In this document: positions 2,988 to 64,000 of the stretch, piece after piece
Position numbering within the stretch: position 1 is the stretch's first letter
Layout: every line of letters starts with the position of its first letter
Assembly (NCBI GenBank): GCA_008632985.1
Contig: QPGO01000041.1
Coordinates: 1-64,000 of the forward strand
Source: Psammoneis japonica
Lineage: Eukaryota
Reading direction: 5' to 3'
Length of the DNA stretch: 64,000 nucleotides
Made by a program: the position numbers and the translations under genes
Notes under the pieces: model-generated
Seen by the model: only the letters and a program-made list of their open reading frames with translations
The model's database searches: none
What the model was told of the DNA's origin: nothing

Positions 2988-3159
2988 GGTTGGATTGGTG
3001 GCAGCAGCTTTCTACGTAATATTTGTTTAGAAACTTACATACGAGAGACGTCGTATCTCTCTACAGAGTATCCTTCAGAGTCTGTCTGTGTCCCGTTTGA
3101 ATCTCTCCGAGATTTATTTTTGGAACAGTTGTTGAGTTTATTTTTGAAAAAGCATCTCA

Positions 3160-10670: not shown

Positions 10671-10689
10671 AGGAGTGCAAAAGCAATGC

Positions 10690-35914: not shown

Positions 35915-35989
35915 TTCTACAAGTTAGGGCCCCAGTGGTGCCAAATAAATCTTGATGCAGCAAAAGAGCAAATGCAATGCAAAGCCTCT

Positions 35990-37633
35990 TACGTGACTGG
36001 GCCCTGCAGTGACACGAAGTGGGCGGTCCTTCGAAAATTTTCTCTAAGTCGAAGAGGCATTTCCCCCTCTACACAGTCGCGGCAGCAGTGCCGAATTGCC
36101 AACTTAGAATCTGTGGAACTGATCCAGTCTATGTCTTCCTCATTGACAGAGCTTTCGGGCATGCAAAACAGATTGGTCATCATCTTAGGAGGTGAATGTC
36201 GGAGGCAGTTTTAGCGATCCAGATTGATCCAACGGAAAGATTCTCTACGGCAAAGTCGGAAAACAGACGGATTTGTTCATGGGGCTCTCCACTGGTGAAA
36301 GCAGGCTAGCGAACATAAATTTACACAGTGCGACGCTCGTCAGTTGAAATGTTCTTCATGTGTGGTGTGTGCAAAGCAGTGGGCAGTGTAGACCAGTTTT
36401 AGACCACCACAATCACAGCTCTTCAATGACTTCAGTGAAGGGTCTGGGCGTTTTTGACGGTTTCATGCGACTCTTCTTGAAAGATTCAATGCAGTCTTCG
36501 ACAGCAGGCAAAACCAAACTGTCTTCACCTGCAACTGGTGGGCAGAAATGAAAAGAGTCATTGCACCGGCTTTCACTCCTGGTGACTGTCTTGAATGCTG
36601 TCATGACTGGCTTTGTGTCATGCTTCGAATGCATCAGTGCCAACAACTCAGGTTTCTTCGCCGGAAGGTCAATGGGATTGCGTCGTCCACCGTCAATGTC
36701 GGTTGGCTCAATTTCATTCAGCACCAAGCACACAATGTGCACACAAGGCTCATCACCAAGCCGATCTGGACAATGTGAAGTGTCAATGGCAGTCCCCACT
36801 TTCCTCAACAATCCGTGAATCGATTCAATGACGTGTCTGTCTGCCTGTTGACACAGCGTGGTGGCATTCGTTCCAACTGGGTGCGGTTTGACGGTTGATT
36901 TTTTCACGTTCTCAGCCTTTTTTGCCAGTGCCATGCGTTCCTCTTCTGGAGAAAGAAGTGATGTGGCCTTGAGATTGAAATTTGCACCACCATCGTCTTC
37001 GGCGGCACTCACCTGCTCTTCGGAATCTGGCGCTGGGGTTGTGACATGACGCTTCTTGTTCGCAGTGCCTCTAAAAAAATTTCTCGACGATTCCAACAAA
37101 GTTGGTGATGTGAGCCTTTCTTTGGGTGGAGTGTCATTCACAGAAGGTTCCTGTGGCGACTCTCTAGCCAATTGACTTCCTCCAACATGTGCAGTTTGTT
37201 CCGCAGCAGTGTCCGGCATGGGTGAAACTGCTCGCGGCAACGCCGCAGCTCTGTTGTCAACTGGAGCAAGCTTGGTTTCAATTGCAGCCTTTTGATCCAT
37301 CAAAACACAAACTCGTTGCTCACACACAGTTTTCTCCCATCGTGGCATCTCACTCCAGCGTTTTTGCTCCAGCTTCCGCTCAGCGGCGTCCATCTCAACA
37401 AAACTCCGAACCTTCTTGAAAATGGTGCGCCAACTCGTGTCACAACCAACCACATGGCGTGGCATTGAGTCTCCATCACATTCCAACTTTAGTGCCGCAA
37501 CGATTGACAAGCTGTCTGTGGCATCAATCAGCATCATTTGCCTCTCCTCGGTCCGATTGTACGATGGAACAGGAATCAGTACGTCACATCGGGTGACCCC
37601 ATTCAACTGCGCATCATTCGATGATGGGGCCAT
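35990..37633 (-). pseudogene. Second (accessory) ORF of the Academ-like element, Cys-rich C-terminal part
   Basis: 406-aa ORF 36413-37633 starting ~110 bp inside the right TIR; further Cys-rich fragments continue to ~35990. Confidence 0.5.
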
Positions 37634-38341
37634 CTCTCATCAATCTTGAAACTTCAACAGTCACTGGAGCACTCTTAGATTGTGAGTGTGAAGTGTGAGA
37701 GCCTTGGGCGTCATTTCAGTGGAGCCACAAGACGATGCGTCGGCAGCGCTCGTCATGGTGTGCGTTTTTTTGATGTTTTCCCAACAGAGGCATTTTGCAG
37801 CACCCCGACGAAGTCCAGATGGAACCGCTGCACGCTGCGCTGGTTTCCAGATGAACTTGGAGATGCACAATGAAGATGCACGCTGCTCCCCCCCCTCCCT
37901 TGCACACTTCCCCCCCATGTGTGCACTCGTCTTTGAAAACTGCAGCTCAGTGGCAAAAGAATTTCTGGGGTGCCATGTCTCATTTAAGAAGTGCATCTCT
38001 CTGTGTTGTTGGACGATTGCCACACCCTGCCTTTTCTTGCCTTGATGGCCAACAGAGCCCAGAAAGACGGACGCGGACGGACTCCGGGACATCGACCCGT
38101 CCGTCGGTCGTCACGCAATGGTTTGCGCGATTGACACCACCAAATCACACCGGCATCATCATCAGCGGCGGCGCTTGCTGCACTGCCGCCCGCACCCCTG
38201 TGGTGGGGGAGAATGTGGTGATGTCATGGTTGCGTGGCAGTTCACATCTTGTTCATTGCATTTTCACATGAATGTCCTCACATTTGTTCATGCATTTGTG
38301 CACAAATGCCAACAGCAGCAGGAAAAATCCTGAACCACATT

Positions 38342-39875
38342 CTCCCCTAAAACTCCAACCACCAAAAACCGAGGGGTCGGAAGCACACTTTTGAGAGCTC
38401 TTTTTCTCCGCACAAAAAACACGCGTTTCGTCAACTCGACCATGACGACCTCCCGTTCTTCGTCCCCCACACCACCTGATGCATCCCTGCCTGCCATGTC
38501 TGATGCGGCAGTCCCTCCTGTGTTGGCCGGTGCCGTTGCACCCGCTGTCGTTACCCAAACACAGCCGATTTGCCATCCGGAGGATTTGGGCTTCTGTTCG
38601 CCGGATCCTGTGCCTGAAACACAAACACAGCGCCGTGATTGGTCTACTCCTGTCATTGCGTCCCCAGAGAAACTGGATTCTCGTTCGCATCGCCATGTCA
38701 TGGAAGGCACTGATGAGCCTTCTCTCAAACGGTCTGGGGTGCAGCTCCGAAACCAGGTCAAAAAACAAAAGCAACAAACCGATGTCAAGGTTCAGTGGGT
38801 GTGGCAGAGGAGCATCTATGACAGGAGGCATGGTGATGACCTTTCTCAGGATGGTTGTTCCCAAGCAGAACCATGTCTGTCTGGAGGTGATTGAGACTCA
38901 CCCAGAGCCCAGCGGAACCAATCGGAGCCAACAACAAGTGTCAAGATGAACCGCAGCAACATGTGAAGGAGGGTGCAGCCAATGGAGTGCGGGCAGAGAA
39001 GGTGCCGGCATGCAAGGGGGCCGAAACGCAGGTGCGGCGTTGGAATTCGTGATGGCATCTGTGGGAGGCGGTGGGGCGAGAATGAAAGAAGTGTGAGTTG
39101 TTGGCATTTGACGTCATTGGCAAAATGCAACAACAGCATCAACAGCACCTGCGGCAGCAAGGGTGGGAGCAACAGTGTCGGGCATGCCAGGGGGCCGAAA
39201 CGCAGGTGCGGCGTTGGAATTCGTGACAGCATCTGTGGGAGGCGGTGGGGCGAGAATGAAAGAAGTGTGAGTTACAAGCATTTCGTTGTGGACGTTGTTG
39301 GCAAAATGCAATGACAGCATCAACAGCACCTGTGGCAGCAAGGGCAGGAGTGACAGCATCGGGCATGCCAGGGGGCCGAAACGCAGGTGCGGCATTGGAA
39401 TTCGTGATGGCATCTGTGGGAGGCGGTGGGGCGAGAATGAAAGAAGTGTGAGTTGCAAGCATTTCGTTGTGGACGTCATTGGCAAAAGACAATGACAGCA
39501 TCAACAGCACCTGCGGCAGCAAGGGCAGGAGTGACAGCATCGGGCATGCCAGGGGCCCGAAATGCAGGTGCGGCGTTGGAATTCGTGACAGCATCTGTGG
39601 GAGGCGGTGGAGCGCGCAAACAACAGTGTGAGTTTGCAGCATCTTATTTTGTACGCATCACACCCACGAGAACCGGAATGATGACATCACCTGTTGTGTC
39701 AGTGTCACCAGCAACGGTGTCAGTAGGATCGGCATCCTGGGAAGGCGATGGGGAAGAACCACGAGGCATCATCATGGTCGAGTCGACGAAACGCGTGTTT
39801 TTTGTGCGGAGAAAAAGAGCTCCCGAAAGTGCGCTTCCGACCCCTCGGTTTTTGGTGGTTAGAGTTTTAGGGGAG
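38342..39875. mobile_element. Non-autonomous TIR (foldback-type) element with internal tandem array
   Basis: CTCCCCTAAAACTCCAACCACCAAAAACCGAGGGGTCGGAAGC...CGACCATGA at 38342-~38450 and reverse complement at ~39770-39875; no clear TSD. Confidence 0.8.
39005..39640. repeat. Tandem repeat, ~174-181-bp unit, ~3.5 copies
   Basis: GGCATGC(C/A)AGGGG(G)CC...GCAGGTGCGGC.TTGGAATTCGTGA at ~39007, 39181, 39362, 39543. Confidence 0.92.
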
Positions 39876-39904
39876 CTGTGGGGCAGGTCGTCAAATGGTG
39901 TGGG

Positions 39905-40065
39905 TTAGCGTACATAACGACGTTGCTGACGCAGACGGTCATCCTTTAAGTAAGTAGCCCTATGTACGCTATAAAGTTTATAGCGTACATAAAGAGCTGC
40001 TGACGTTATAGGGTCATTCTGCTTCTATGTACGCTACAAATCTCCCCTATGTACGCTATAAAGTG
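39905..40065. repeat. Cluster of TATGTACGCTA motifs in both orientations, including a perfect hairpin
   Basis: TATGTACGCTATAAA-G-TTTATAGCGTACATA at 39961-39991; other copies at ~39906 (rev), ~40026, ~40048. Confidence 0.85.
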
Positions 40066-40155
40066 ACATCCACAATTAAGAAGAAAGACAGAAAGGTAAT
40101 GGGTCAATTTTCAGTTTGGATTACCGACATACATCGATGAATGTGTATGCTTCGC

Positions 40156-41142
40156 CAGAAAACGTATCCGCGGTATGGTAAGTGCGGTCAAAACGGCGGT
40201 ATGGAAATCTGATTGGACAAACGACGTCAGCTACGAAAAGATGACATCATCCTTACCCCACCATCTATTCGGCCCGTGCGTCGCCGCCGCCAGAGCAGGC
40301 CAGAGCAACTTCAAAAATTCTCAAGTCCCCCAAGAGCCAAGAGCCGTGAAAAGACAACACACTGTGTACGCAAACAGCACGAACCGCCCATGACAGCGGC
40401 AACTTTCGGACTGGTGAGCATAAAAATAACACCATTAGAACCGCAGTATTCTTATTAGTATGTGTTCATTGTTTCTCTTTTTGTTCAATGCAAGTCCGAC
40501 ACTCTTATGGGATAATTTCTTCAACTTTCAAGTAGAAAGTTTTGCACCGTCCTTCTCGGGCCATTTAGTCCACCTATACTAAAATCATTTAGCTTACATA
40601 TAACACCGTTCAATCAGCTATATCTAAATTACTCTCTATGGTAGTTTCTGTGTCATAGAGATCTAGTTTAGGGACCTTATGCATGGCCATCTGCGATGCA
40701 AGAAAAGACCTGAAAAATTCTTTCAATACAACAGGTCCATTTTGGAAAGAAGTACGCAAAGCGTTACCATTTCCTTCTCGACACGTATCATAACTACTTC
40801 ATATTATCGATTGATGCTACTTCTACTGTCATAAAGTAGAGAGAAGTTGTCCAAAACAACCACACACCGCCATGGCGACTTGCACAAAAACAATTCTACG
40901 CGCGGCTTCAGTACTTGACGTGATGCGTCTGATACAGTGTACAGTACTGTACCGTACGTACCGTACTGTACCGGTAGGTACGGTACAGATTGCGTGCGTG
41001 CTACCGTAGTAGCTGGGGGGGCAATAATGATGTCAACATTACTTATTGTGAACAACAAAGTTTTTAGCTGACGTCGTTTGTCCAATCAGATTTCCATACC
41101 GCCGTTATGACCGCACTTACCATACCGCGGATACGTTTTCTG
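40156..41142. mobile_element. Non-autonomous Mutator/MULE-type element (987 bp), 78-bp TIRs, 9-bp TSD ATGCTTCGC
   Basis: CAGAAAACGTATCCGCGG...GTCAGCTA 40156-40233 vs 41065-41142 (1 mismatch); ATGCTTCGC at 40147-40155 and 41143-41151; 9-bp TSD is typical of MULEs. Confidence 0.92.
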
Positions 41143-41528
41143 ATGCTTCGCAGGCACCACGCAACAAACTGCAGCACCACAATGATGCGTGCCGCCGGTG
41201 TCTCACTTTACGGCATGATGTCTCAATGACGCTTTCGCCGATTTTCCTGTTTGTTTTTGATTTCTTAACAAAAATTGTACAATTCATCCGAAAAGCTTGG
41301 CGCTGTGGCTTCTTGACTTTGCTCATGCCATCCTCACAAAAGCAAGCCTTTGTTTCCTTGCCCTGCTTCTGCTTTCTGCTGCTGCTCACCTTGGGCTTTG
41401 GCATGTGCTGGAGATCATTTCTGGCCACCTCAGATGCTGCATGCCTGTGAACTTGTCTGTGCTTTTTGTCTTTTCTTTTTGTTGTTGCTCTGGCTTCTTG
41501 CTGCTCCAACACACAGAGCACTGCTTTT

Positions 41529-41530
<2 letters not shown>

Positions 41531-41560
<30 letters not shown>
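41531..41560. repeat. (GCT)10 microsatellite within a TpA-free degenerate repeat region (~41290-42590)
   Basis: Direct reading. Confidence 0.9.
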
Positions 41561-41562
<2 letters not shown>

Positions 41563-42590
41563 TGTTCATGATCATCATGCTGGGGAGCTCCTTGCCAAAG
41601 CTGCAAAGAGATGATTTTCCAGATCTGCAACAAGCATCAAAGCAGCAGTTCTTTGTGAGGCAGCTCTCAACAACAACTGGGCCAAACCCCAAAGTGGTGC
41701 TGAGAACACTTTGCAGTTTGCAAGGTGTTGCTTGGTCATGGACAACATGCAGAGTTTCTCAGCTGGCTTGCTGTGGTGGCAATGAGCTCTTGCTGGGTTG
41801 TGCTGTGTGGAGCATCTCAGCTGCTTGTGCTTTTGGCACCCAAAGCCGTCTCACAAGTTTCTCTTTTGGCATCATCTTGTTCATCCCTTCCACCTGTTTC
41901 TTCAAGATGCAGCATGCAGCAGGGCTCTCTGTGAGAGCTGGCATGTGGTGCCATCCTGGCTTCTTTTGCTTTGCCTCTTGCAGCCATCAGAGCTGCAGCT
42001 GGACACACTGGTTCTGCACAAACTCTCCTTGTCTGCACGCCACACTTTGTTCCACACCAAATTGTGAGGCAAATCTCAACTGGCGCAGCTGTCACACACC
42101 CCAAAATGGCATTGAAAACACTTTGTGGGGTGCTGCTTGGCTGCAGACAACCTTCGGCCTTCTTGGCTGGGGCCAGCTGGGGGGCAGCAGCCAGCTCTCT
42201 TGCTGCTGGGTCACAGCACAACACGCTGCAGAGCATCTCTCAACTGCTGCTTGCTTTTGGTGCCCAAAACAGTCTCACAATTTTCCCTTTTTGGCATTTT
42301 GTTCACCCCTTCCACCCAGTTCTTCAGTGCACAGCACACACCACTCTCCTCTCTGCACCCCGGCTCTTGCCCCTCTTCCTCTGGCTCTCTGCGCATCTTT
42401 TTTGCTTCTTGCTGCTTTGCCTTTTGTTGCAGCCACTGGTGCTGTGGCCAGACACTCTGTTTTGGCACAAGCTCCTTGTCTGCATGTTGCACTTTGCTTC
42501 AAATGTTGTTCCTTGTCCTTTTGAGAGGAGATGCCTTTGGTGATGGGTGCTTGTGCAGAGTTGTTTGTTCTCCCCACTTTAACATCCGGG

Positions 42591-42940
42591 NNNNNNNNNN
42601 NNNNNNNNNNNNNNNNNNNNNNNNNNNNNNNNNNNNNNNNNNNNNNNNNNNNNNNNNNNNNNNNNNNNNNNNNNNNNNNNNNNNNNNNNNNNNNNNNNNN
42701 NNNNNNNNNNNNNNNNNNNNNNNNNNNNNNNNNNNNNNNNNNNNNNNNNNNNNNNNNNNNNNNNNNNNNNNNNNNNNNNNNNNNNNNNNNNNNNNNNNNN
42801 NNNNNNNNNNNNNNNNNNNNNNNNNNNNNNNNNNNNNNNNNNNNNNNNNNNNNNNNNNNNNNNNNNNNNNNNNNNNNNNNNNNNNNNNNNNNNNNNNNNN
42901 NNNNNNNNNNNNNNNNNNNNNNNNNNNNNNNNNNNNNNNN
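42591..42940. other. Assembly gap (350 N)
   Basis: Run of n. Confidence 1.
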
Positions 42941-42954
42941 NAGGACGGCCGTCC

Positions 42955-50068: not shown

Positions 50069-53000
50069 TTATCCTGTCGCATATGCGTTGACTGTCTTGA
50101 GCACGTCAACGACTTTTTTGATTTGTTTCTGATTCATGTTCTCGAGTTGCACAGTCTTGCACACGCTCATCCTGCCAGATTTATCGCCTACCAACAGTGT
50201 GTCTTGTTGTCCACTACCCATCCGCAATGCCGTGATGGGGCACGAGTGAGGATTCTCTGGCATTAAATGGCGCATCACCAACACGTCCTCGTCGTAATCG
50301 AGGCTCCACAAGCGAATGCTCCCTTTCGTATGTCCTGTAACGGCCACTATCCCTTGCTCCATCCATTCGGGACAGTCTGTGGATATCGCACAAGTTGGGC
50401 AGTCATTGTCGACACTATAATGCTCGCCCGGGCCCTGAGATGCCAACAGATTGCCATTCACGTCAAATACGCTCAGATGCGGTCCAAGAAGTGTCACAAT
50501 GTTTCCGTTTCTGTCGTTAATCGAAACGGATACGGCGGGAGAGCGCAACTCCTCGGTTGCATTATCCTTGACTCCATCGTTGAATGAATGACGAAGTCTC
50601 CTCAAGAAGGTGAGTGTCCGAAGGTCCCACACTAACACAGTCCCACGCGCACATCCCGTTATGACTATACCAAATACAGTGCTGACCGCAATGCAGGTAA
50701 TCCTCCCTCCTTCGTGACCACAAAGAGTAGCTCTGAAATCAAGGTTTGTATTCTCGTGTCTCCATACGCGGACTGTGGAGTCAATGCATCCCGTCACCAG
50801 CCACATTCCATTATTGGATACACTGGCACAACTTATCGGAGCTCTGTGCATACCGTCATGGATACTAATCATCTTGTTCACTTCCCTGTGCCTTGTAGAC
50901 GGGGAAGCGACGTGTATACTCACGCCATTGTTGGGCCCTCCAAAGCGATAGTATTTCTTCTCTGGTTCAATCAACACGCAGGTCTTCCCGACTCCAACAA
51001 CTTGTCCCCTGACTAAGCACATGTCACCGACGGAAGAATCCATCTGTCCCGACATACCCACCTTGCACGTATCAGTCATGGTTGAGCGAATGCGTACCAG
51101 ATGAGGAGCGCCCGGGACGCAAAATGGAGGAGTTAGAGGTGCTAGGGCACTCAAAACCCCGAAGTCAATGTTCTTCTCTTCTTTCAATAAAGAAACAACG
51201 TTCCTTGGCGGGAAGGTTTCCTCTCCAAACGACTTGGCGTTTGTCCAAAGTTCTGAATCTGCGCAATCGTTGATTCGCGCTGGATGGGATCATCCATTGC
51301 CTCGAGATCAACTTCTCCCTCGTAGGTTACATGTACAAACATGTTCAATGCTTCGATGGCTTCTTCGCCTCGTTGCTTGTAACCAAATACAAGGTCACAC
51401 CATTGATGCAAATGCCTGCTGACATGGTCGCTCTCTAGTGCCTGTGGTTCGAGACAACAAAGAAGTTAGCAACTGTGCAAGTAAACATGAAACACTATTC
51501 AATCTGAAGAGTCCTTTAGCGTACCTGTCGATTGATGCGAACAAAACGTCTTGGGTCGTTCTTTGCCCAAGGAGGGAGCGTCACGTCATGAACAGTCTTC
51601 CCCGTCTGGGTAGTACCGAAGTCGAACAGATTTTTATTGACGAGGAATTCCGGAAGGTAGAAGAATTCGGGGATAAGCTCACGAACATCTTGCAGGTTCT
51701 CAGAACTTGCACTACGCCAGCTGTGCCCAATGTTGTGAAATAGTCGATCAGCAACGTCAAACTTTCCTCCCTGAAGCGACAAAGCAAGTCGAGAGAAGGG
51801 TTCCAACCGCATCAAATAATACAAAACGTAAGCCGAGGTCGAGTAATGAGTTCCATAGTGAAAAGGTGGCGGTTCGTCTTCGTTGAAGTAATTTGATGCC
51901 AAGGCTTCATATCGATCCAAAAACTGTTGTGCTCGTGCTTCGCCGAGCGCTCCCATGGGTTTCGATAGATCACGATATGTTGAAGGATTGTCCAAGTCGA
52001 TCTCTTCGCTTTCATAATCAGCAATTACCCACGGAAATACGGGATACTGCGTTAGATCGTTGTAAGTTCTGCCAGCAAAAGAGTTTAAGTGCATCAAAAA
52101 ATCAAAGTTGGTCATCTTCCCGTTCACCCATTGAGACACAATTTTCGCCTTCCATTGATTCATAAACTTCTTGTAGTTGATAGAGGTACCGTAGCCTGAC
52201 GAGCCAAATATGCTATTAGGTAAAGGGGTCACCAGGATCTGATTGAGCACCTCTTCGCGATCCGCACTGCTGGAGAAGGCAACAAGCGTGCCGTTTCGAT
52301 GGACGTCAAAAAACTCAAGCGCATTTCCTTGCAGCTGGTACTTTCTTCGAAACACAGAGTACAGATCATCGAAGGCGATCCTTTGGCTCCTATGCTGATA
52401 AGTAATCTCGTCACTGGACTTTTGTGCAGCTTTCGACTTGTTGCTTTGTGAGCTTTTCTTGTCGCCTGATTCGCCGTTGTCTTGTAATTCAGCGCCTTCC
52501 TCAGAAGCTTTGAAGTCCTTTGGGCGCAAGTTGATAAAAAAAGTTGAACTCTCTCTTTCAACACGTTTAATGTAGCCCTCCAGTCCGTCGCCGTCTTTCT
52601 GTTCAAATCCATCGACAATGTATATCGCGTCCCGGCACCAAAGAAGCAACCCCTGTCGGACCTCTAACCCAGTACACCTGTTGACGTTGTAAGACTTTTC
52701 CGGCCAGTCTCCGGCCTGAAGAAGACCAGTGATGAGGTCGTAGCTGGAAGCCAATTCGTTGTCTTTTGCATCGGCTGCAGCCTGTTCTTCCTTGCCCTCT
52801 TCGGTTTGAATATCATCTTGAGCATTTCCTCGCAGATTCTGTTCTGGCACTGTATCCCCTTTGGCCGAAACCGACTCTGATGCACTAGTGCTATCGTCTT
52901 GATAGGAGCTCATAGCCGTGGAAGCGGTGTCATTTTCATCGTCCATGTCTGCATAATCAAGTTCATCATAGAAGTCGTCCTCATCTTTGTGCCTCCCTCT

Positions 53001-56000
53001 TTTCAGGTTTAGATCTTTGAGCAAGGCAGCCGTCGCCTCCATCGTCTCCCCAGCGCCATACACCGACGCCCTGTTTTGATCATACACGCTACCCGGTATC
53101 ACCCCGGACTTCGCTTGTCCAGAGCCTAAACTGTCGGCGTCAGCTTCAGCCTCATTGTCTTCCATAGTTGCTACAATTGCTTCATGATCTGCCATTTCGT
53201 CCAAGTTGTACAGACTGTGAAACTCGTAGTTCGGAAGAAATCGCCGCCGCTGTCGTTCGTAACCCTCCGTTAGGTCGAGCTTCCATCGCTTAACCATTTC
53301 AATCTTTTCAAGGCGCTTTTCGTCGTACCCGTCATCTTCTATTGCCTTCTTCGGTTTACATCCTTCAATCAAATGAGATTTCTTGTAAAGCGAAGACTCA
53401 TACTCATATAAGGTACCTCCTTCCCATATTGAGCAGGACCCTTTCAACTGTCGGAGAAGGAACTTCCACTGCATTGCACCGGAAGATAGATCATCAAAGC
53501 CCTGGCGCATCCAGAGATCATGGTTATCAGCAGTTTTACCGTAACATCTTTGAGCCAGTTCAGCTCTCTCCAGCCCTCCCAAAATGGTACGATCAGAGGA
53601 TTCTTGAGAAGTGAGTTTGAGGAGCATGTTTTTCTGCTCGTTCTCGATGGCTTCTTCTGGTGTGGCAGCGCCTACTTCAGCGCCTGGGAAAAGACGGCGA
53701 GACTCCTTCTGTATGGCATCAAAAACTACATCTGCCTGAGCCTGATGGCGTTCCAGCCACTCAAAGAACGAGGCATACTTGCCCTTCGTCGCTGGAACAC
53801 CACGCCCACTGCCGCCACGGCGCGGGACCGTCGAAACATTCGCCGCCACTGTCGCTGCCTCGTGAGCAACTAGAAGGGCTCCAAAGCCTCCGCGTTGCAT
53901 GACGTCAACGGTCTCCATCCGATCTCCGCGGGGGGCTTCCACAACAAGTATCTCGGCCATAATCGCTCTCCGCTGTTGAAGCAGAGCGACAATTATCGAA
54001 ACAGCTGTGTCTCGCATATCCTCTCTTCGATCGTACAGCAAGGCATACATTTCATCCATTAATGCAACTACAAATGCTCGATCTGGTGCCGCCATTGTAG
54101 ACAGGTCTGGATAGGCACATTGAACGAAAGACCTTGATAGACTTGCCGACAGCCAGAGCGGGTACGTTCTGCTGTTACTCGGTGGGGGCGGGTTTGCAGG
54201 TGCCCCCTTCGCTTGCCGTCGTGAGCCTTGACTCCCTCCTGAGGGAACAAGCAGCAACTTTTCGATATTGTCATTAACAATATCTAGAATTGCAATTTTC
54301 AAGTCATCATCTCCTTCATCATATGGGGTCAAAGGCCTGCTCCGCTGCAAAGCGGATAAGCAAGTAAGACGTCCCATGTGAGCAGCATCGACAGCAAGAA
54401 TAGCGACGTCGGCACTATTCAACACATTTGTAGCGTTTGTGCCGGTGGTTGTGAGGCTCGTCACAACCGACATAATGATTTGGACGGTCTCGAGAGTCGG
54501 TTCGGACGTGTAGAAACCTGCCATCAAGCGATCAAGAAGGACGGAGCACAAGCCAATGCAGTTCGCAAATGCAAGAGGTTCGCCGCATAGCAACGCATCT
54601 TCGACCACCGAGCGACAGTGCTCAATCATTACCAGATGGAAAGCTTCCACTTGCTCCGGCGAGGCATGAATAGGGAACGAACGAAATAGGGCACTGATGA
54701 GTGGGGCAGCCAGGGGACCTGCCATTACTGCGTGCGAAACAACTAATCGCAAAAGGTGCACCATTCCAATGCCGCTGCTCCCTGTTACTTCTTCAGGCCG
54801 ACCAACGAACCTCTCGGTCGGGGTAGTATGTCTTGGTACATCAGACAAGCTACCCCGTCGTCTGGTTTTGGAGGCGCTTGTAGGGCCCAAGTTAGGACTG
54901 AAAACTTCAGATATAACTGTCCCGCCATCCATATTATTCTGCATTCGCTGTAACTTCTCGTCGTGAACCAGACATAGAGCTTGCGCTAGCGGCTCCAAAA
55001 AATCTGGAGTGCGGCAAAACTGCTGGAAGACAGGTGAATGTTTATGCTGATGAGCCAGCAACTGCAGGACTGCTTCGTTCGTCTGCCGGGCTTTACGACC
55101 AAGATCGTTCTTGAATGGAGCAAGCTGGATGTTTCGACCCAAGCATTCGGCGAGAAGGGCAAAAATACCGCAAGACGGTTCAGACTTTTGCCGACCGCCA
55201 CTCTGCACCTTTTCTCTCATCACCAAACAATGGGCGTCGCTTTCTTTATCGAAAGCTTGGCATAGCTGCGACGCATCAAGAACCCCGAAGCAAGGCAGGT
55301 GGAGAATAGGGGCGTGCAGCAGTTGGCTCAACATGGACATGATGATGCTCGGGCAGGTGGAAAACTTTGGAATACTGAGTACAAGAGGGGCGAAACCGCC
55401 GGCATCTTCAAAGGAAGCAGTAAACGCTGGAGAACTCTGTAGCATTAGAACCATGAGACGAAGTACCGCCGACGCTGAAGCTTCCTCGTGACAGCCCTCA
55501 AGCAAGCATGCAAACCAAATTGGAGTCAGAACGCCAGCAAAAGCCTGAAGGAAGGCTTGCGCTTGTTGGTGCTTTGGATGAAGAGAAAATTCATCAGCCA
55601 AAGATCCGTCTGGCGCCTTTCTCGTTCTTGTCATCATAGACGTGAAGTAGGATTGGTTAGTACTGGCCCCTCCGCCATGATGAGGTTCAATTGTTGGCTC
55701 TGCTTGTCCTTCGACATCTTGGGAGCCCTTCTTGTCACCCCCCGCGGTCACTATTTCGTTAACGCCGTCCACAACAAGTTCTTCTATGAGTCGAAGGAGA
55801 TACACTCTAGTAACTGGGGCTGGTAGGAGCTTATCTTCCTTGGTATCTCGTCCATCCATTTTCCGAGTTTTTGACATTATTTTGAGTTTCTCTGATCCGC
55901 TTAGCTTCGTGTTGGGGCCGGTGATGGAGACGGTGTATATCGCAGCTTCCGCTATAGCTTCGAGATCGCCCGGAGTCAACATGAAGGTCAAGACTCGGCG

Positions 56001-59000
56001 AAGCAGTGTTTTGCACGCTAGCAGCATGGTATTATCAGGGTCGCCCCCAATAGAGGTGGACTCCACGGAAGGGGCTCGGGAGCGCCAGCCGTTGTTCAGC
56101 GCTGCCGTTGCCGCGGCGGGGACGTTGCCTTTTTTCCCGGGGGAGGAATTGTTGTCTCGCCGCGACCCATCGTCAGAGGAGCCATAAGTTTCCGCGGATT
56201 CGGCTACCTCAGCCGCTGTATAAAGCTCGGCAGCTTCTAACATCAAGTGTATCGTCCAGTGGACGATACCTAAAAGATGTAAGCGCCGTGAGTTGAACGC
56301 CTTGTGTATGGAATTGTGCGCCACGAGCCCATTGAGGAAAGAGAGCAGTCTCAATGGCATAGCTGGGCCAGAACCACGCAAATCCCACACCTGATGGTTC
56401 AAGAGCAAATATTTCATCGCGTCCAGATCTGAAAATACCCATTTTTCCGCCGTTGGCCACAACTGCAGTGGGCCTGTTCCATCGTATTCGACATTTGTGA
56501 TATTATCCGCGGCAGAGATCGGATCGAACCCGTTAACAGCAAACGCGAAGCATTGATCGAGGAGGTATTCATCCATAATCTTTTTCTGATGAAGCAGTGT
56601 TCCAAGAATCCGGTATCCACCTCCAGACTGAAGCATTTCAAGGTTCGGAACGTGGCATTTCGAGCTTTCTCGGAGCAGGCGCAGGGCGAGAACAAGGCTG
56701 CGTGAAGATCGAGCAGCGTTGACGAGCGGCATCAATAAATTAGGCCCTCCGATCCACTGAACATTATCAGCAAAACAATGAGGAGATATGATGCTGCCTC
56801 CGCCGTACACAACCGCATCAGTCGAGACGGTCTCGATGCTTGCATTCATTCTTGCAATATTCACTAGCCGCTTCGCGTGGTTTCTCTTGTTACTTGGGAT
56901 CACACCATCTCTAATGCTGGTACTTGAAGAACCAGGGAGGAACCCAAATACGACATATTCCGGTGAAATTGTGCAGAGCAAGCCAACCACGGCCAAACTG
57001 TCGGCTTCCGGTCCTTGTACACGGCCGCCTCCAAAACCTCGCTCAGGAATTACATGACCAGCAGCTTCAACTTCTGGAACCTGTCGCCGTCGTAATGCCC
57101 CAGCAACACTGCCTGGTTCACCGCTCTCTGCTAACATCACAAATGCAGCTGTAGCCGTTGCTGTCAATGATAAACGCTGGGGTCTGTCGCCCCAGAAAAG
57201 ACCTTGAAAGTCAGGACCAGCAGCGTATATTGAAGTAGCGTCTCTATTTGACACAAGAGTGGAAAGCATTAGTGTCGGACCTAAGTCCCAACGAGGAAGC
57301 TTGCCCCTGATGATGCCACTGCTTGCCAGGTATGCATTGGGAACGCCGATTTGCACGTGGGAATTTGGCGGCAAATTGACGCTATCGACGCGGATTTCGG
57401 CTTCCAGAGGTCTGCCATCGACGAATAGACCAAGAACGGCTTTTCTGTTCAGCATGGATCGTTTTGGGGGAAGGTAAGCAACTAAGATGTGATGCCAGAC
57501 CCCAGCCCGAAGCGGAGATGGTGGAAAACAAGTTGGTTCATTGCGATGTGAGGACGAAGAAAGAATATTGAATCTCTGAGTATGGAGATCAAACCACAGG
57601 GTCATGAATTCCTTCGAGCCTCCTTGGCTGGAATTCTCTCCCTGTGGGCTTGAGAGGTCAAGGATGAACACATTCCCGGATGGCTTCTGTCCTTCGAGGT
57701 CTTTTATTCTGAGCCAAATAGAATAGGAAAACCCAGTTGTCGCGAGAGGTGTCCATATTCTCTCCGCTGCATTTGAGGGAGATTGAGTTCCCGCAGTTGT
57801 GCTCCCGCCGACGGCTGAAGAGTCAATACTTTTCATTTCTAGGAATTTGAGGTCCCCTTCTTCCGCCAACTTGTAGAGGCGATCTTTAATCTCTGTGTCT
57901 TCCATACGCAACGTCATTCGGTCAAGCGATTCACCACCCAAGTCACAACGAGGCGTCCTTTCGCCTCGTCCTGCAATAGTGCAAAGCATTTCTAAGTTTG
58001 TACAAAATTCTGCCTCCTGGGATTGCCACGATTCTGAAGACATTATATCGGACGAAGGTTTGGACGACGTGCTTTTTGCCACAGAGGAAATAACAGGCAA
58101 TCGGATAATGTCCTTCAAGTGATCTGGTCCATCTTTCGTGTCAGCCATTAACATCGGACCGGCAATGCCTCGAAGCAATGCCACGAAGTCAGTGTAGGAC
58201 ATACTATAAGCAGCTAGTCGTCGAAGGAGCAGCACGAAACGTGAGTAGAGGTGATGCGCGCTATTCTCCATCAGAGGTGCAAACTCATGTCGACTTGTGA
58301 GGCTCGAACACAGACCGCAAGATGACATTTGTGTCAGTGTCGAACCCGCCATCTCTGGCGAGCAAAGACGGAGCATCTCATCCAGGACACGCTTTGATAG
58401 AGAAACACCATATTCCTTCCGCGGTAGGGATGTTGCCAATCCCATGACAAATCTGGACGCGTCTGGGTTACGGATAACTTGTACCTGTCGTGAAGCCGTC
58501 TTCTTTGCATTCTCGTTGCTTTTTTCTTTGTCGTCCCGAAGTTGCAGCGAGGGATCCATATAGGCTAGTGCTAGGTTCAACACAGAGAGCGTATGACGAG
58601 AACGACTGAAAATACCGGTGCTCGATATCGCGTTCACATAGTCGATGTAGAAACCTTTACGAAGCAGATACTGTCGATTCTTTGTCGTAGGTTCCGACAG
58701 CTGAAGGTCGTCCACCAAAACATCTGTCGACGATGAAGCCTGTGCGCCGCCACCATGTCTCCGTGTCGCTCCCACGGAAGCGCCAAGTAAACCACAGGCA
58801 CTTTCGAAAAGTTTCAATGTTGCAGCTGCCTTCTCTTCATCGAGATCACGGTCCTTCTTTTTACGCTTTCCTTTGTCGTCTTTGCTTGAGGGTGACTTTT
58901 GAGCATATCCTTCGAGGCATAATGTAATTTGGATTATATACTGGAAGCCATCGCAGGTTCGAAACGCATCCTGTGCCACACTGTTTGACTCCAAGACGGA

Positions 59001-61547
59001 TTTGAGCATAGAAAAGATATCCGCTGCTCTGAGAACAGTGCGTGGATTTATGACGATCTTCTTCTTAGGGGCATTCGGGTCTTTCTCTTTTTCTTTCTTG
59101 GTTCGTTTCTTGGTAAAGGCTCCGGTGCCTATAAGCTTCATTAATTCCGCAAAGTAGTCCAGAATCTCAACGACAAACTCCATATCCTTTGTCAGTGATT
59201 CGACCGAAATTTGTGCACTCATCATGGCATCAAACACTCCTAGGGCAGCGGATGATGCTTCGTCACCAAGATCCTTCATCGCCGACGTGAACAAGACATG
59301 GAGCTGTGATTCGTCAGATGGCATATCCTCTTCGAGGGTTTCATCCGCAGCGTTTCTTGGGGACGACGTAGCAAATTGCTGTACAACCACAACTCTCAGG
59401 ACACGGCATATGGCAGCAAAGATCCGATCGAGAGATGTGGAGGCCGGTGGTTGGACAAAAACCTTACCTCCTGATTCGAAAGCACTTTTATCCTTCTTTC
59501 TTCCTGCTTTGGACACTTGCAGCACATAGTGCATGACGTCGTTCAGCTTGGAGGTTAAAACTCCCCCGTCCAGCATTACTTCACTCACGCGATCGTCAAA
59601 TTCTAGCAACTTTTCGACTGTAGCACACATCATGTCTGTATCCGTCAAGAGAGATTCGAAGATTTTCGCGTCTTCTTCGGTATCCATCTGGACACCATTT
59701 GCACCCTTCAATAAGTTCTTGCACAGCGTAAAGAATATCTCGCTTGTCACTTTGAGAGGTTTCACGGCATCCGTGCCAGCAACGCCTGTGCACACGTACT
59801 CAAGCGTTTTCAAAATAAGAACTTTCAAACTCACGTCTTCGAAAGTGGGGAACGCTAGAAGGTAGTACGACAACACGTTGTGTTTCTCTTCAATAATAGA
59901 GTAGTTCTTGGCGTGGTCCGAATACATCTGCAAGGTTGTGACAAGCAACTCCATGGATAGCTCAGAACCTTCCATTGCGCCGCCAGAAAAGCGCAGGTTG
60001 AAGGCAGTGCTAAGCGAAAACGTCGCACACTCTTTCAAACTCTCCTCTGTCGAAATATCGGGCCGATCATCACCATAAACTTCCCCGTGTTCTTTCAAAA
60101 GCGGCATGGAAGTATGCAGCAAATCTACCACAACATCCAAGGCAGCAGCGTTGGTAATGAGTTTCCCTTCTTCCTGCTGCTCGCTCGTCGGGAGTTTCTT
60201 TTCGACAACCAGAGGGCCCTTTTTCTTGTCAGATTCGCCTGCCGGTTTTGGTGCCGGTGGTTGAGTATTACAATACGCAAGAGTTGGTATAAGCTCCATC
60301 AGCATCTTGGCATGATCGTGGTTCGACGCTTTAATCGCGTCTAGCAACACGTCGTATCCTCCAGCATCATCAAAATCATTCAGTAATTCCAGACACTCGT
60401 GGTTGCAAGAAAAGACGACCAGAGAAACAAGAGCTCTTAGAGCTTGAACCCACAAGCCGGCTGCTTCCGCGTCCGTTCCATAAAGACATTGCGACGAGTT
60501 GGTCAAGGGAGCTTCTGAGGAGCAGAGCTCCTTAACATCGTCCGTCATGTGTACAACCATTTTCTTATCGTGAAGATACCAAACCAGTTGTTCTGACAAG
60601 CAATTTTCTGAAAAGGCCACAATAACGGCAGAGGCTGCGTTGGCTACGTGAACACCCGATATTGGGTAGGATGCACCAGACAAGGCGAGCAGTCCAAACA
60701 GGTGGGGGCCCAACTGTGCTCCAACACTAGCGTCTTTGCAAACAAGGCACAAAAGCTTAGACACGTTGGCGGTAGCTTGTTTGCTGAGTGGTTCAAGCGC
60801 CATTCCCTTCTCGTGCATCTCGGCAGCGTGGCTCAGTTCCATCACACGCAGCAGCCGTAAACAGTGAATCAAGTTCGGTGGCAGCTCATTCTCGACGCAT
60901 CGTAATACAAACTTCTCACAGTGCGAGTTGGCTAACAGTACTTCAATATCAGACTGGGCGCCATCCTTCTCGTCGTTATCTGACCCACCCAATAGATCCA
61001 AGAGCTCGGATTTCCATTCCAATTGCGCTGCAGTTGGCTGTTTAGTTTTTGCCGCAATTACGAGCTTCAGAACTCGCTCCCCTAATCGATTTGCAGCGAT
61101 GCTAACCTTTCGTTCCACTTCTATATCCTGTATGTTTACACCCCGTGCCATATTTTGAAATGCAGACATGAAACCAACATCGCTAGTCCTTCGATTATTC
61201 GCCATGGTTCTAGGACTGAGTTCATAATATAAAAAAAAGACAGAGCAAAAGGTTAGAATTAGGGTTGAACATAAGCCCCCAAAAATTGCACTGTAAACGC
61301 CAGAAATCGTCATAAGCCAACTCTCCCAGCACCAGCAAATCTCCCAATTGCAGTTCATACAAAAATGCCAACCACAAGCAACAACATGGCCACAACAGAC
61401 TTACTAGCCAGGGCCGCCCGTAAGTGGACTTCTTTGCCCAGAACCCGGAAATCGCGTAGAATCAGTACCAGACGCCCCGTTCCCCTCCGCCGCCGCGGAC
61501 GGATCCTGCTGTTTCTCATCGTTGGATCCGAATAACCATGACCTCAT
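50069..61547 (-). CDS. Giant BEACH-domain protein (ConA-like, PH, BEACH, WD40); introns 61216-61404 and 51442-51524; apparent frameshift ~51200
   Basis: WVNGKMTNFDFLMHLNSFAGRTYNDLTQYPVFPWV, YRDLSKPMG, FHYGTHYS, DVRELIPEFFYLPEF, NFGQTP, C-terminal WD repeats; exon 1 MRSWLFG... 61547-61405 splices in frame. Confidence 0.95.
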
Positions 61548-61744
61548 TTTGATTGCGTTCGAGACCCCTGTCTTTATACTACAGTTCAGCAAGTCCCATT
61601 TGAGGTGAATGCGCTTCCGGGGTATTGAATCAATGCGCTGTCCCTCTCGAACAAAAGGATGCTCTTGAGTTGGCTCTCTGATGAAGGATGAGGTTACTTC
61701 TACTTGGGCGTTGAATATTTCCCGCCAAATCGAATCGACGTCGG

Positions 61745-62146
61745 TGTTGAGATGACCGGAATGCAAGTAAATTAAAAATATTTGTCATTTAGACTTAGAT
61801 TATGTTGGACATCCGTTGAAAATCAACACATCTCGTAGAAGTCTACGCGTGACTTGGGCGTTAAGAAGTTTTATTCAGAACATCGAGAATGTATAAATGT
61901 CAATGAAAGGAAATGCAAATTGAACTTTTCAAACTGAAATATCTTTATTCGGTCATAATGACTCCGTGAAACCTGCAGTGTCTCGCACCCTATTTTTCTG
62001 ATATATGGTATTAATGAATCTATTAGATATAACGGAAGCCGTTGTAACGGGCTTCGCTGAAAGCGACCCTCGTTACCTCGGTCTTTCGCTCACAATTTTG
62101 TTATCACTAAAGTCTTTATCTCGTTAGACCTTGCACTGTAATTACA
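61745..62146 (+). mobile_element. Putative 5' LTR of the downstream Gypsy element
   Basis: AT-rich segment starting TGTT and ending ...ATTACA just upstream of gag; second LTR is outside the window, so boundaries are guessed. Confidence 0.35.
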
Positions 62147-62164
62147 GTCGATTCAAAGAACTGG

Positions 62165-62380
62165 ATGGAGACTAGGAACAATACAAACAAATTGACTAAA
62201 CGTGAGAAAAGAGAACTGCGCGCAAGAGCAGCAGTTTGGGCCATTGAGCACCAGAAACAAGTGCAACAGCGCAAACGACACGAGCAGAATTTGGCGAGCC
62301 GAGTGCATCATTTGGAGTCAAAGGTAGAGTCCCTGGAAAGGACTATTGAACAATTGTATTCCCTTTTTCATGATGAGTGA
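62165..62380 (+). CDS. Short coiled-coil upstream ORF of the Gypsy element, overlapping gag start
   Basis: 71-aa ORF with heptad pattern (LASRVHHLESKVESLERTIEQLY); stop overlaps ATGATG of gag. Confidence 0.45.
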   Translation: METRNNTNKLTKREKRELRARAAVWAIEHQKQVQQRKRHEQNLASRVHHLESKVESLERTIEQLYSLFHDE

Positions 62381-64000
62381 ATCGTTGAAGGAGCCTTGCA
62401 TCAGCTGTGAAGCTAAATTTGAGCATTCTGACTTGGAGGACATGAAATTGACCCAATCGCATGATGACGGTAGCACTCGTACAAAAAAGTGTCCGCGTTT
62501 TGATGGCACTCATGGTGTTGAAGCATTGTTATTCGTTGAGGATCGTTTTCGTAAAATTGCTGTGAAACTGGAGCACACTGCTGGCGAGGAGTTGTTCGAA
62601 AATTTCGAGGAAGTGCTCACGGATGCGGCAGAGGACAAATGGGCGAATTTGACCAATGCAATTGACGATGCCGATAAAACTGTCGAGCGTTTTGATCAGG
62701 AAATCAATCGTTTTTACTTGTCTTATTGTGACAATGAAGCGCGTGATACGATGATTGAATGTTTGCCAACTTTGAAAAAACCATTCAAATCTGAAGTGCA
62801 GGCGCGCGCGGATCGCATGGAAACCTTGATTCGGTGCTCCAACAAACTTCCGGGAAATGCTCCTCAAGTCAACGAAGCTCAGAAGAAAAAGATGACATTT
62901 GACAGCTTCCCTCGTCCGTGGCGTGAGATGTGTGCTCGAGCAGGACGAGCGACAGCGAATGACACTCTCGCTGAGATCATCAGTTGCGTGAACAATGAGA
63001 AATCTTTTGCTGACAAGAGCAGCAACAAGAAGCAGGACAAGAAGAGGAAAGACAGTGGTGCTTCGTCTCAAGCTTCAAGACGCTCTCGTGGCAACAGTGG
63101 CAGAACGGATCCAGAATCTAGATGCCCGGTGCACGCAAATCACGACCACAAGTGGAAGGACCGCACTTTGAATCCAGAAAGCCAAAACTGTCGGCCGAGG
63201 TCCAACCGTGGCGGTCATGGCGGAGGCCGTGGTGGAGGCCGAGGAAACTGCCAAGGCAGAGGACCCCAAGGTCGAGGCGGTCGTGGCAACTTCCAAGGTC
63301 GAGGACGTGGCAATTGTGGCAATCAAGGAGGATGTGGAGGCCGAGGTTATGGCAACCACAACAACTCCCAGAATTCTCAAGGGAATGGATCCCATTGTCA
63401 AAATCAAAACGGCACCCAAGCCAACGGTGATGCCCAAGGCTGTGGAAATCCGGCTGGAGCAGCTCCTCCTGGTGGCTGGCAAATGGAGTCGCACCATTTT
63501 GATCAAGGAGGGCCTCGTGAGATGCGAGGTGGAAATGGATGCGATCAGAACGGTCGTGCCCATCAAGGCCAACGAAGTTGGCGCAATTGACAAGGGACGG
63601 AAGCGCCCGAGTCAGAGCGTGTCGCTCAATCTTTTTATGTTTGTGTGATTGTGAAGAAAACACATGTTTTAATGTTGATGACAATGTGGGAGACCTGATG
63701 GAATCTTGTGCTGTGAATGAAGAAAAATTGGGCGGCGTTTTGGAGTGCGCTGCACCAACCCCTAAAACTGCGACTCCCAAACCATTGAGTGTGGTGCCAA
63801 TGACGTTGATGGCGGCGCGCACCATTCAAAATCAAGAGAGCAAGCGAGTGTCACGCGTGCCATTGGATTCAGGAGGTGCTGACACTCTTGTTCATTCTCG
63901 AGTTTTGCCGAAGGGAGCGAATCCGACCATGAACGATGAAGGATGGTTGAGCTTTCAGATGGCAGCCGGACGACATGAATCCTCCCGACACGTTGTCATG
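62370..64000 (+). mobile_element. Ty3/Gypsy gag (62370-63590) and start of pol (aspartic protease), TpA-mutated, truncated by window edge
   Basis: Gag with CPVH..HDHKW knuckle-like motif and RGG-rich tail; protease RVSRVPLDSGGADTLV at ~63845-63895. Confidence 0.85.

Follow-up and report, generated by a model that had tools for sequence, protein, structure and literature searches.

The window, the whole 64,000-nucleotide stretch of DNA that was analysed, ends inside a mobile element. Sequence comparison supports reading 62004-64000 as the 5′ part of a single Ty3/Gypsy LTR retrotransposon whose family has many copies, the assignment to Gypsy coming via its relatives. The left edge of the repeat lies at ~62004: a single-copy contig of the read set (depth 62.8) ends at 62003, and the summed contig depth beyond it is 466-5331. 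The element therefore begins well before 62370, where the earlier note on this DNA had placed its start. Beyond 62135, five read-set contigs diverge, and this divergence together with the depth edge suggests a short LTR. As judged from this one end, with the second LTR lying off the window, 62004-62135 is probably an LTR. We did not identify a primer site at the left end of the element within the window, and neither blastn nor tblastx found a second copy of the Gypsy element within the window. The parts of the element are the following.

62004-62135, + strand: left end of the repeat, putative 5′ LTR (depth jump at 62004, contig divergence past 62135)
62165-62380, + strand: 71-aa leader ORF with a coiled-coil look, overlapping the start of gag (from the ORF list)
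62370-63590, + strand: gag ORF, 406 aa plus stop, open from the ATG at 62370 to the TGA at 63588-63590
63539-64000, + strand: beginning of pol (-1 frame), cut off by the end of the window (from the ORF list and relatives)

The leader ORF had no Pfam match, and tblastn found no counterpart of it in 14 related loci. The gag frame is open, as had been noted earlier, and encodes a Cys/His knuckle remnant (63123-63164) and an RGG-rich tail from 63207. Gag has 45 homologues (E ≤ 1e-3), of which the best show 45-48% identity and one is in Ditylum brightwellii; related loci have pol immediately downstream of gag. The start of pol has 57 relatives; several carry RVP, and in one PR precedes RVT_1. Its protease active site DSG (63866-63874) aligns to relatives that match RVP. 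No Pfam family matched the gag or the protease fragment of the window itself. The window stops at 64000, within the protease, and the domain order downstream comes from related loci: RVT_1, RT_RNaseH and Integrase_H2C2 follow one another in all three loci checked (L004, L007 and L009), and RVP was matched in one of the three (L004). The assignment to Gypsy made in the earlier note is thus upheld through these relatives.

TpA is nearly absent from most of this copy. Between 62761 and 64000, where about 5 TA and plentiful CG had been counted by eye, there are exactly 5 TA (o/e 0.07), 74 CG (0.88), 110 TG (1.53) and 99 CA (1.24). At the host o/e of 0.58, 39.5 TA would be expected (Poisson P(≤5) = 6.6e-12). 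The counts for 62370-64000 are 14 TA (o/e 0.14) and 97 CG (0.96), and the host stretches of the window have a TA o/e of 0.5-0.75 and a CG o/e of ~1.0. TA o/e changes along the element, from 1.16 in 62004-62135 (13 TA; TA-rich and unconverted in the window copy) to 0.48 in 62136-62369, 0.29 in 62370-62760, 0.05 in 62761-63590 and 0.12 in 63591-64000. Two tracts can be delimited by their degree of conversion.

62370-62760, + strand: half-converted tract (9 TA, o/e 0.29, vs ~19 TA expected at the density of the relatives)
62761-64000, + strand: almost fully converted tract, TpA erased and CpG retained (TA o/e 0.07, CG o/e 0.88)

In the half-converted tract, Tyr is retained in FYLSYC and altered in CISCE. 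The earlier statement that CpG had been kept holds for the ratio; it does not hold for every site, as the window copy has lost CpGs present in sister copies and relatives (e.g., at 62442 and 63960).

Comparison with relatives indicates that the TpA loss is derived and not native to the Gypsy family. The gag loci of relatives have a TpA o/e of 0.52-0.74 in 14 of 14 cases. The window gag contains 3 Tyr and 17 Cys, where 41 relatives have 6-28 and 0-11, respectively, and six family-conserved Tyr columns read Cys in the window and none His (two-sided sign test 0.03). The peptides quoted in the earlier note are all present (MIECL, 62751-62765; IRCSNKLPG, 62829-62855; EHTAGEELF, 62571-62597; GRGNCQGRG, 63237-63263; GGCGGRGYG, 63327-63353; VSRVPLDSGG, 63848-63877). 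The replacement of Tyr by Cys proposed there is borne out by the six columns, whereas replacement by His is weak, with no majority-Tyr column and one possible case (QSHDDGS). Among 26 residue differences from the family consensus that a single transition could account for, 14 restore TA (11 from TG and 3 from CA), against a chance expectation of ~16% (P = 1.1e-5). Inferred A:T>G:C transitions that change a residue fall at TpA in 14 of 19 cases and at CpA in 4 of the other 5. Three coding-strand T>C changes at TpA were found: Leu to Ser at 63852, Leu to Pro at 63861 and Ile to Thr at 62896. The first two had been proposed before from the protease motif; Ser (63851-63853) and Pro (63860-63862) stand where 14 and 17, respectively, of 18 relatives have Leu.

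We also calculated the dinucleotide balance of the gag frame from 62370 against 13 relatives (35-50% identical and from other organisms), leaving out L012, which has 30 stops in the naive frame. Per 1000 codons, TA goes from 148 to 26, TG from 172 to 285 and CA from 226 to 218. These changes of -122, +112 and -7 amount to a strong coding-strand bias. Three relatives from other data sets (P0001, P0002 and P0028) show partial Tyr>Cys/His replacement; the fetched related loci do not include the DNA of P0001 and P0002. The claim that TpA was removed specifically, separately from CpG decay and from ageing, is sustained by the TA content of the relatives and by the TA-restoring differences.

Other copies of the family were compared with the window using 706 contigs of read set X1, the one sequencing run found to contain the sequence (0.43 of the words); read sets X2 and X3 did not cover the element. 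No RNA run was among those listed as containing it, which has no bearing on expression. Transitions make up 242 of the 288 variable places. Among the 40 of these 288 places that were listed, 37 are transitions inside the element, and 32 of the 37 fall in the quartet TA/CG/TG/CA (expected share 47%; P = 8e-7); CpG decay between family copies accounts for 13 of the 37. At 62007, 63558, 63584, 63661 and 63852, among the places listed, other copies have TA and the window has TG or CA. The proposed protease Ser site is one of these: at 63852 other copies read T (TTA) at a depth of 862 of 1181, with C>T in 7 contigs. The reverse is seen at 62109, where the window keeps TA and most other copies have TG (4978 of 5846), and the 5′ 130-370 bases of the window copy are unconverted whereas sister copies are converted there. 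At several listed places (e.g., 62442, 63204 and 63604) no contig carries the window letter, so that independent reads do not confirm the window copy in full. Over the 2003 bases of unique flank, 2 bases and 1 indel set the window apart from the read set. The earlier note had regarded sharing of the replaced residues by sister copies as evidence against its reading. Sharing was found in part, as a minority of the depth has the window's letters, and this is expected because each TA has just two possible products.

TpA erasure is found elsewhere in the window, in the following stretches (no strand assigned).

3232-23930: older tract 1, TpA-erased and CpG-poor (o/e of TA 0.04, CG 0.26, TG 1.87, CA 1.81; other dinucleotides host-like)
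31175-39645: tract 2, TpA-erased with CpG half kept (TA o/e 0.11, CG o/e 0.63)
39007-39614: 181-bp tandem array inside tract 2
41278-42590: tract 3, TpA-erased (TA o/e 0.10, CG o/e 0.26), abutting the N run at 42591-42941

The three larger tracts total ~30 kb. Their edges are sharp at 3139/3232, 23021/23930, 31175 and 39645, and the adjoining host kilobases have a TA o/e of 0.5-0.75. The focal tract sits inside a repeat family, and the flanking host DNA is spared. TA (o/e 0.04-0.11) and CG are the only dinucleotides depressed in the four depleted tracts, and TG and CA the only ones raised; AA, AT, TT and the remaining dinucleotides are at host level, so that TA alone is low among the AT-containing dinucleotides. 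In tracts 1-3, TG is about equal to CA, and the TG/CA skews are small and mixed. Units of the 181-bp array alternate between TG and CA at 6 sites with no CG left; its CpG sites include 7 that never vary and 3 that just one unit has lost. The array shows conversion in place, on both strands. Nine duplicate pairs within the window have 30 TG<->CA double differences. Of the 113 surviving TA, 63 are in YTAR and 6 in RTAY, corresponding to survival relative to host density of 0.29 and 0.016; the YTAR survivors could in part be newer TA made later. For tract 1, neither the six-frame translation (3001-13500) nor its ORFs had a Pfam match, and 63 ORFs of the other tracts scored no higher than noise. 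A PDB sequence search with three long tract 2 ORFs gave no meaningful match, and the 607-aa ORF at 32856-34676 had no near-length homologue.

These comparisons reveal a signature together with its direction, its dinucleotide specificity and its confinement to repeats. The sequence evidence makes it likely that the focal element copy was changed after it had been made, by A:T to G:C transitions restricted to TpA. TpA would mostly become TpG on the coding strand and sometimes CpA, in a process faster than CpG decay that would keep to mobile DNA with sharp edges and would prefer TA-pyrimidine as its target. Proteins would be disabled by missense: Tyr to Cys, Leu to Ser or Pro, and Ile to Val or Thr. 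Frames stay open because conversion of TA to TG or CA never makes a stop codon, and for the same reason the open gag frame is not a sign of the youth that the earlier note had proposed. The DNA itself may be altered where it stands, as it is in Bigelowiella natans, and a TadA/ADAT2-like polynucleotide adenine deaminase that targets silenced or foreign DNA might be responsible. As a tentative proposal, diatoms like the rhizarian B. natans might run a RIP-like defence of opposite polarity. In it, a TadA/ADAT-type adenine deaminase would act on silenced mobile DNA, erasing TpA most readily where a pyrimidine follows. Its action on a transcribed retroelement would fall mainly on the coding (non-template) strand and spread downstream from the LTR, causing pure missense with long frames kept.

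The same copy might instead have been born mutated, if an ADAR-like or ADAT-like enzyme had hyper-edited its RNA (A to I) at UA before reverse transcription. This would account for the patchy conversion along the element and for the nearly exclusive coding-strand A>G in the focal copy (TG +112 vs CA -7 per 1000 codons; Tyr>Cys 6 vs Tyr>His 0), and ADARs favour U before the edited A (bioRxiv 10.64898/2026.01.13.699255). We nevertheless consider it unlikely. Coding-strand T>C is present too (63852, 63861 and 62896), and the tandem array and the ~30 kb of tracts with TG about equal to CA point to both strands being changed in place; the older tracts lack the strand bias of the focal copy. ADAR edits after A as well, whereas ApA is at host level in the depleted tracts. 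The events described for B. natans in the main text of the preprint happened in place, in single-copy DNA (bioRxiv 10.64898/2026.01.13.699255).

The DNA signature of a deaminase would also arise if silenced DNA were marked at TpA by a modified thymine prone to mispair with G, for example one of the 5-hydroxymethyluracil type, and all our counts fit this reading equally because T>C on one strand is A>G on the other. Thymine marks of this type prefer TpA in some protists, and the tracts coincide with CpG-decayed repeats, that is, with marked chromatin. Set against this, there is no evidence for such a base in the host organism, and the TA-pyrimidine preference is similar to the U-A-C loop context in which tRNA adenosine deaminases act. 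A deaminase, with a named candidate, is also the explanation preferred by the authors of the B. natans preprint (bioRxiv 10.64898/2026.01.13.699255, main text). We judge a thymine mark slightly less likely than editing of the RNA.

It is very improbable that modified repeat bases were misread as TG or CA in a long-read assembly. The window letters carried by no contig at a few listed places and the differences in the unique flank would fit such an artefact, but both base differences in the flank are unsystematic, the read-set contigs themselves vary between TA, TG and CA among copies, and the three partly converted relatives come from other data sets. The signature was also seen in Illumina data of B. 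natans (bioRxiv 10.64898/2026.01.13.699255, main text). Least credible of all is native avoidance of TA by the family, through codon usage or a TA-cutting or TA-inserting agent: it would suit the open frame and the extreme depletion, but the open frame follows from the mutation type, TA is ordinary in all 14 related gag loci and present in sister copies, and functional positions, among them those beside the protease active site, have lost their conserved Tyr, Leu and Ile. GC-biased gene conversion was rejected, as AA, AT and TT are unaffected.

The closest parallel to the signature seen here is B. natans. In its mutation-accumulation lines, two integrated viral regions gained 231 mutations, of which 230 were A>G/T>C, all at TpA, and the long-term trace consists of TpA-poor, CpA- and TpG-rich clusters with reverse-transcriptase/DDE genes and many unannotatable ORFs, according to the main text of the preprint (bioRxiv 10.64898/2026.01.13.699255). 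The two cases share A:T>G:C change at TpA only, to TpG or CpA, and its confinement to foreign or mobile DNA. They differ in host, a chlorarachniophyte there and a diatom-like organism (stramenopile) here, and in target, integrated viral DNA there and a many-copy Gypsy family here. Erasure is also deeper here, with an o/e of 0.04-0.11 over ~30 kb vs 0.45 in the NCLDV region of B. natans. The B. natans events arose de novo in living lines, whereas ours are known from sequence comparison alone. Coding-strand bias and TA-pyrimidine preference are features of the window copy, and the words context, flanking, trinucleotide, logo, diatom and stramenopile are all absent from the main text of the preprint (bioRxiv 10.64898/2026.01.13.699255). 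In the literature we found no diatom report of the TpA-to-TpG/CpA signature; the B. natans preprint (2026) was the sole report found.

Three better-known processes share part of this pattern. Fungal RIP is likewise repeat-confined and dinucleotide-specific, produces transitions only, has sharp edges and disables mobile elements. It differs in changing C:G to T:A mainly at CpA, creating TpA (PMC2621366) and also many stops, whereas here TpA is destroyed and no stops arise. The TpA enrichment that marks RIP is replaced by its opposite, a TpA o/e of 0.04-0.11 with CpA and TpG enriched. CpG methylation decay yields the same TG and CA products and is seen in the older tracts (CG o/e 0.26-0.63) and between family copies, but it cannot remove TpA, and the focal CpG o/e is 0.88 while that of TpA is 0.07. 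In animals, APOBEC3 and ADAR act by deamination against retroelements and viruses and leave strand-biased clusters of one transition, and ADAR prefers U before A; APOBEC gives G>A, and ADAR acts on RNA only and edits after A too. Here, in contrast, both DNA strands are altered in non-retro repeats and ApA is untouched. The B. natans preprint likewise reviews what APOBEC and ADAR do (bioRxiv 10.64898/2026.01.13.699255). An ADAR-type pattern of coding-strand A>G only, with editing after A, does not describe our data, given the three T>C changes, host-level ApA and converted non-retro tandem repeats.

With the case described here, TpA-specific hypermutation would be known from two distant lineages and, for the first time, from a retrotransposon family, which would turn a single-species curiosity into a candidate for a widespread eukaryotic genome defence. 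If the proposal of a defence shared by diatoms and B. natans were true, the system would be old, SAR-wide or older, and many diatom orphan ORFs would be explained. TpA-erased tracts escape domain searches (no Pfam match in ~30 kb) yet are rich in long ORFs, and are therefore prone to be mistaken for orphan genes in annotation. Builders of base editors would have an interest in a natural enzyme that edits A to G in DNA specifically at TA, and the TA-pyrimidine preference and the coding-strand bias offer mechanistic handles toward the enzyme. The graded states within the window, from the unconverted LTR through the half-converted gag start and the erased gag/pol to the CpG-depleted old tracts, order the two processes in time.

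The Gypsy element copy at the right end of the window (about 62004–64000) is nearly devoid of TpA over most of its length. A dinucleotide count of 62761–64000 returned 5 TA (observed/expected ratio, o/e, 0.07) and 74 CG (o/e 0.88), while the o/e of TG was 1.53 and that of CA 1.24, in agreement with the earlier note, which had judged TA scarce and CG plentiful and whose quoted peptide strings are all present. Host parts of the window had a TA o/e of 0.5–0.75 and a CG o/e of ~1.0; at host TA o/e, 39.5 TA would be expected in 62761–64000 (P(≤5) = 6.6e-12). The depletion was graded along the element.

TA o/e by segment of the element
62004–62135: 1.16
62136–62369: 0.48
62370–62760: 0.29
62761–63590: 0.05
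63591–64000: 0.12

We aligned the contigs of X1, the one public sequencing run found to contain this stretch, to 60001–64000. A single-copy contig (depth 62.8) ended at 62003, beyond which 706 contigs piled up at 80–100% identity; the repeat thus starts near 62004, by our figure 370 bases to the left of 62370, where the element had been taken to begin. Past 62135 five contigs diverge, pointing to a short LTR at the left end. Two coding features follow.

62370 (ATG) to 63588–63590 (TGA), + strand: gag, open reading frame
63539 to past the window end, + strand, –1 frame: start of pol, with protease DSG at 63866–63874

Gag had 45 homologues, including a Ditylum brightwellii protein, the best at 45–48% identity. 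The pol fragment had 57 relatives, several matching the retroviral protease family and one extending into RVT_1. The window itself stops within the protease, and the Gypsy label is supported by the domain order of related loci: RVT_1, RNase H and integrase zinc domain in all three metagenome loci examined, with an RVP (protease) match in one (L004). In the metagenome contig L007 (151–8630), pol, gag and pol lie in tandem and both pol ORFs are 1139 aa long, reflecting either a tandem or circular element form or an assembly wrap-around. A 71-aa ORF of coiled-coil appearance in the leader (62165–62380) overlaps the gag start and had no counterpart among 14 related loci.

Relatives of gag and protease indicate the direction of change. 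All 14 related gag loci had a TA o/e of 0.52–0.74, with 10–63 TA per matched segment (189–1227 bases), and the focal gag contains 3 Tyr (6–28 in 41 relatives) and 17 Cys (0–11 in the relatives). When focal codons were checked against the residue most common among the relatives, 79 of 269 columns differed, and a single transition could explain 26 of these differences: 11 reverted TG to TA, 3 CA to TA, 2 to CG, and 10 were other transitions. TA-type reversions thus made up 14 of 26, against ~16% by chance (P = 1.1e-5). Judged from these sequences, TpA loss is derived, not ancestral to the family. The proposed replacement of Tyr by Cys held in 6 majority-Tyr columns, whereas His occupied none, and Tyr>His is weak; a smaller alignment offered one possible case, QSHDDGS. 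Both predicted protease changes were borne out, with Leu in 14 of 18 relatives at the present Ser (63851–63853) and in 17 of 18 at the present Pro (63860–63862); at 63852, seven X1 contigs carry T (depth 862/1181). Three gag relatives from other assemblies (P0001, P0002 and P0028) have Cys or His at 3–4 of ~10 conserved Tyr columns, a hint that partly converted copies may occur in other organisms.

Sister copies in X1 differ at 288 places, 242 of them transitions. Among the 40 places listed, 32 of 37 transitions inside the element fell within the TA/CG/TG/CA quartet (47% expected, P = 8e-7). Within these transitions, the window had TG or CA against TA in others at five places and TA against TG in most others at two (62109 and 62174), and six sites had TG in one copy set and CA in another; sister copies were therefore converted at differing places. 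CpG stood against TG/CA, in either direction, at 13 of the 37, so CpG decay is active in the family too. At some places the window's letter occurs in no X1 contig; the exact copy is only partly confirmed by independent reads.

The earlier note named the open gag frame alongside the element's youth. TA>TG and TA>CA alter TAA and TAG yet never turn a sense codon into a stop; the frame (62370–63590) is indeed open, but as a by-product of the mutation type and not as a mark of youth. For the same reason the window holds 39 ORFs of at least 200 aa, many overlapping on both strands within three further TpA-free tracts. These tracts (~30 kb) have sharp edges against host genes, and no Pfam, PDB or homologue match was found in the searches run.

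TpA and CpG in the depleted tracts
About 3232–23930: tract 1, TA o/e 0.04, CG o/e 0.26
31175–39645: tract 2, TA o/e 0.11, CG o/e 0.63
41278–42590: tract 3, TA o/e 0.10, CG o/e 0.26
62761–64000: focal copy, TA o/e 0.07, CG o/e 0.88

TpA has already vanished however far CpG decay has advanced, and the process acting on it is thus the faster. A 181-bp tandem array (39007–39614; 3.4 units, 90% matches) lies at tract 2's right end. At six of its sites TG and CA alternate between units without CG or TA, while seven CpG sites do not vary and three others are missing from one unit only. TA must thus have stood at the six sites, and conversion hit the units independently of one another, in place and on either strand. 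Across nine duplicate pairs within the window, 30 such TG<->CA double differences were counted.

Tract 2 also contains a 5.5-kb unit enclosed by 108-bp inverted repeats (32284–32391 and 37748–37855, 95% identical), possibly a DNA transposon of unknown kind that has undergone conversion. Its three long ORFs had no Pfam, PDB or database homologue.

32856–34676, + strand: ORF, 607 aa
34499–35911, + strand: ORF, 471 aa
36416–37636, – strand: ORF, 407 aa

Between two TpA-free tracts, a TA-rich island (39860–41132; TA o/e 0.94 in 40001–41000) escaped conversion. It carries 78-bp inverted repeats (40156–40233 and 41065–41142, 98.7%) and short GTAC-type tandem repeats (40938–40986).

Low values were confined to TA and CG, and high values to TG and CA, in every depleted tract; AA, AT, TT and the remaining dinucleotides were at host level, which speaks against both GC-biased conversion and an editor also acting after A. 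Surviving TA in 31.5 kb of depleted tracts numbered 113, 63 of them YTAR and 6 RTAY. Relative to host density, YTAR survived at 0.29 and RTAY at 0.016, with the one-sided classes between them (0.087 and 0.051). The preferred target is therefore the A in T-A-pyrimidine on either strand, and some surviving TA may instead be newly made. A strand mass balance of the focal coding sequence against 13 relatives (L012, a related locus, dropped) gave, per 1000 codons, TA 148 to 26, TG 172 to 285, CA 226 to 218 and CG 142 to 179; nearly all missing TA is now TG on the coding strand. This bias persists where motif context favours the other strand (GTA to GTG not GCA, ATA to ATG not ACA). The claim that CpG was kept is right as a ratio, although some CpGs of the copy are lost too. 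Of the ten transitions outside TpA that separate the copy from the family consensus, four are A>G following C on one strand or the other (62806, 62988, 63162 and 63222) and generate new CpGs; 62806 is CA in most sister copies. The copy is also denser in CpG than its relatives (179 against 142 per 1000 codons). CpA may be a weaker secondary target, so part of the CpG counted as kept may in fact be newly made.

The TpA loss is real, and the earlier interpretation stands after four corrections: where the element starts, how weak Tyr>His is, what the open frame means, and that some CpGs were lost as well. Best supported is a DNA-level TpA conversion directed at mobile DNA, of the type described in Bigelowiella natans. 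A 2026 preprint on that species (bioRxiv 10.64898/2026.01.13.699255) describes mutation-accumulation lines in which two integrated viral regions mutated at ~1000 times the rate of the remaining genome; of 231 mutations there, 230 were A>G or T>C, and all of these lay at TpA. It also counts 124 genomic clusters of TpA-poor, CpA+TpG-rich windows, in which reverse-transcriptase domains, DDE domains and unannotated genes are over-represented, and it puts forward a DNA adenine deaminase resembling ADAT2 as the agent. Its main text does not contain the words diatom, stramenopile, context, flanking or trinucleotide, and our full-text search, which was not exhaustive, found no report of a TpA-loss signature in diatoms. 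Going by that text, ours is the same kind of TpA hypermutation, described once before, in a distant lineage; near-complete erasure, strand bias and flanking preference are added here and render the mechanism testable.

A candidate agent is an adenine deaminase from the family that edits tRNA. In the natural loop substrate of these enzymes an invariant U precedes the edited A and a pyrimidine follows, a context that would fit. Single-stranded non-template DNA exposed by transcription may be the substrate, which could account for the coding-strand bias and the spared LTR of this copy. RNA editing ahead of reverse transcription would also account for that bias but is improbable, since three things remain unexplained by it: the tandem array, ApA at host level, and T>C at positions 62896, 63852 and 63861. 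A mispairing modified thymine, equivalent by sequence to adenine deamination, seems a shade less probable still. A base-calling artefact is contradicted by the TA/TG/CA variation of X1 contigs and by the relatives, and a native TA-poor composition by the TA o/e of all 14 related gag loci.

The host is diatom-like. Its genes are nearly intron-free, as in a 3294-aa BEACH ORF (51516–61400, minus strand), and named matches of a host glycosyltransferase all come from diatoms, with identities of about 50% at most. One contig of X2, another public run, connects 61215 straight to 61405; the skipped 61216–61404 has the look of an intron (189 bases) at the BEACH gene's 5′ end, and X2 may therefore hold transcripts.
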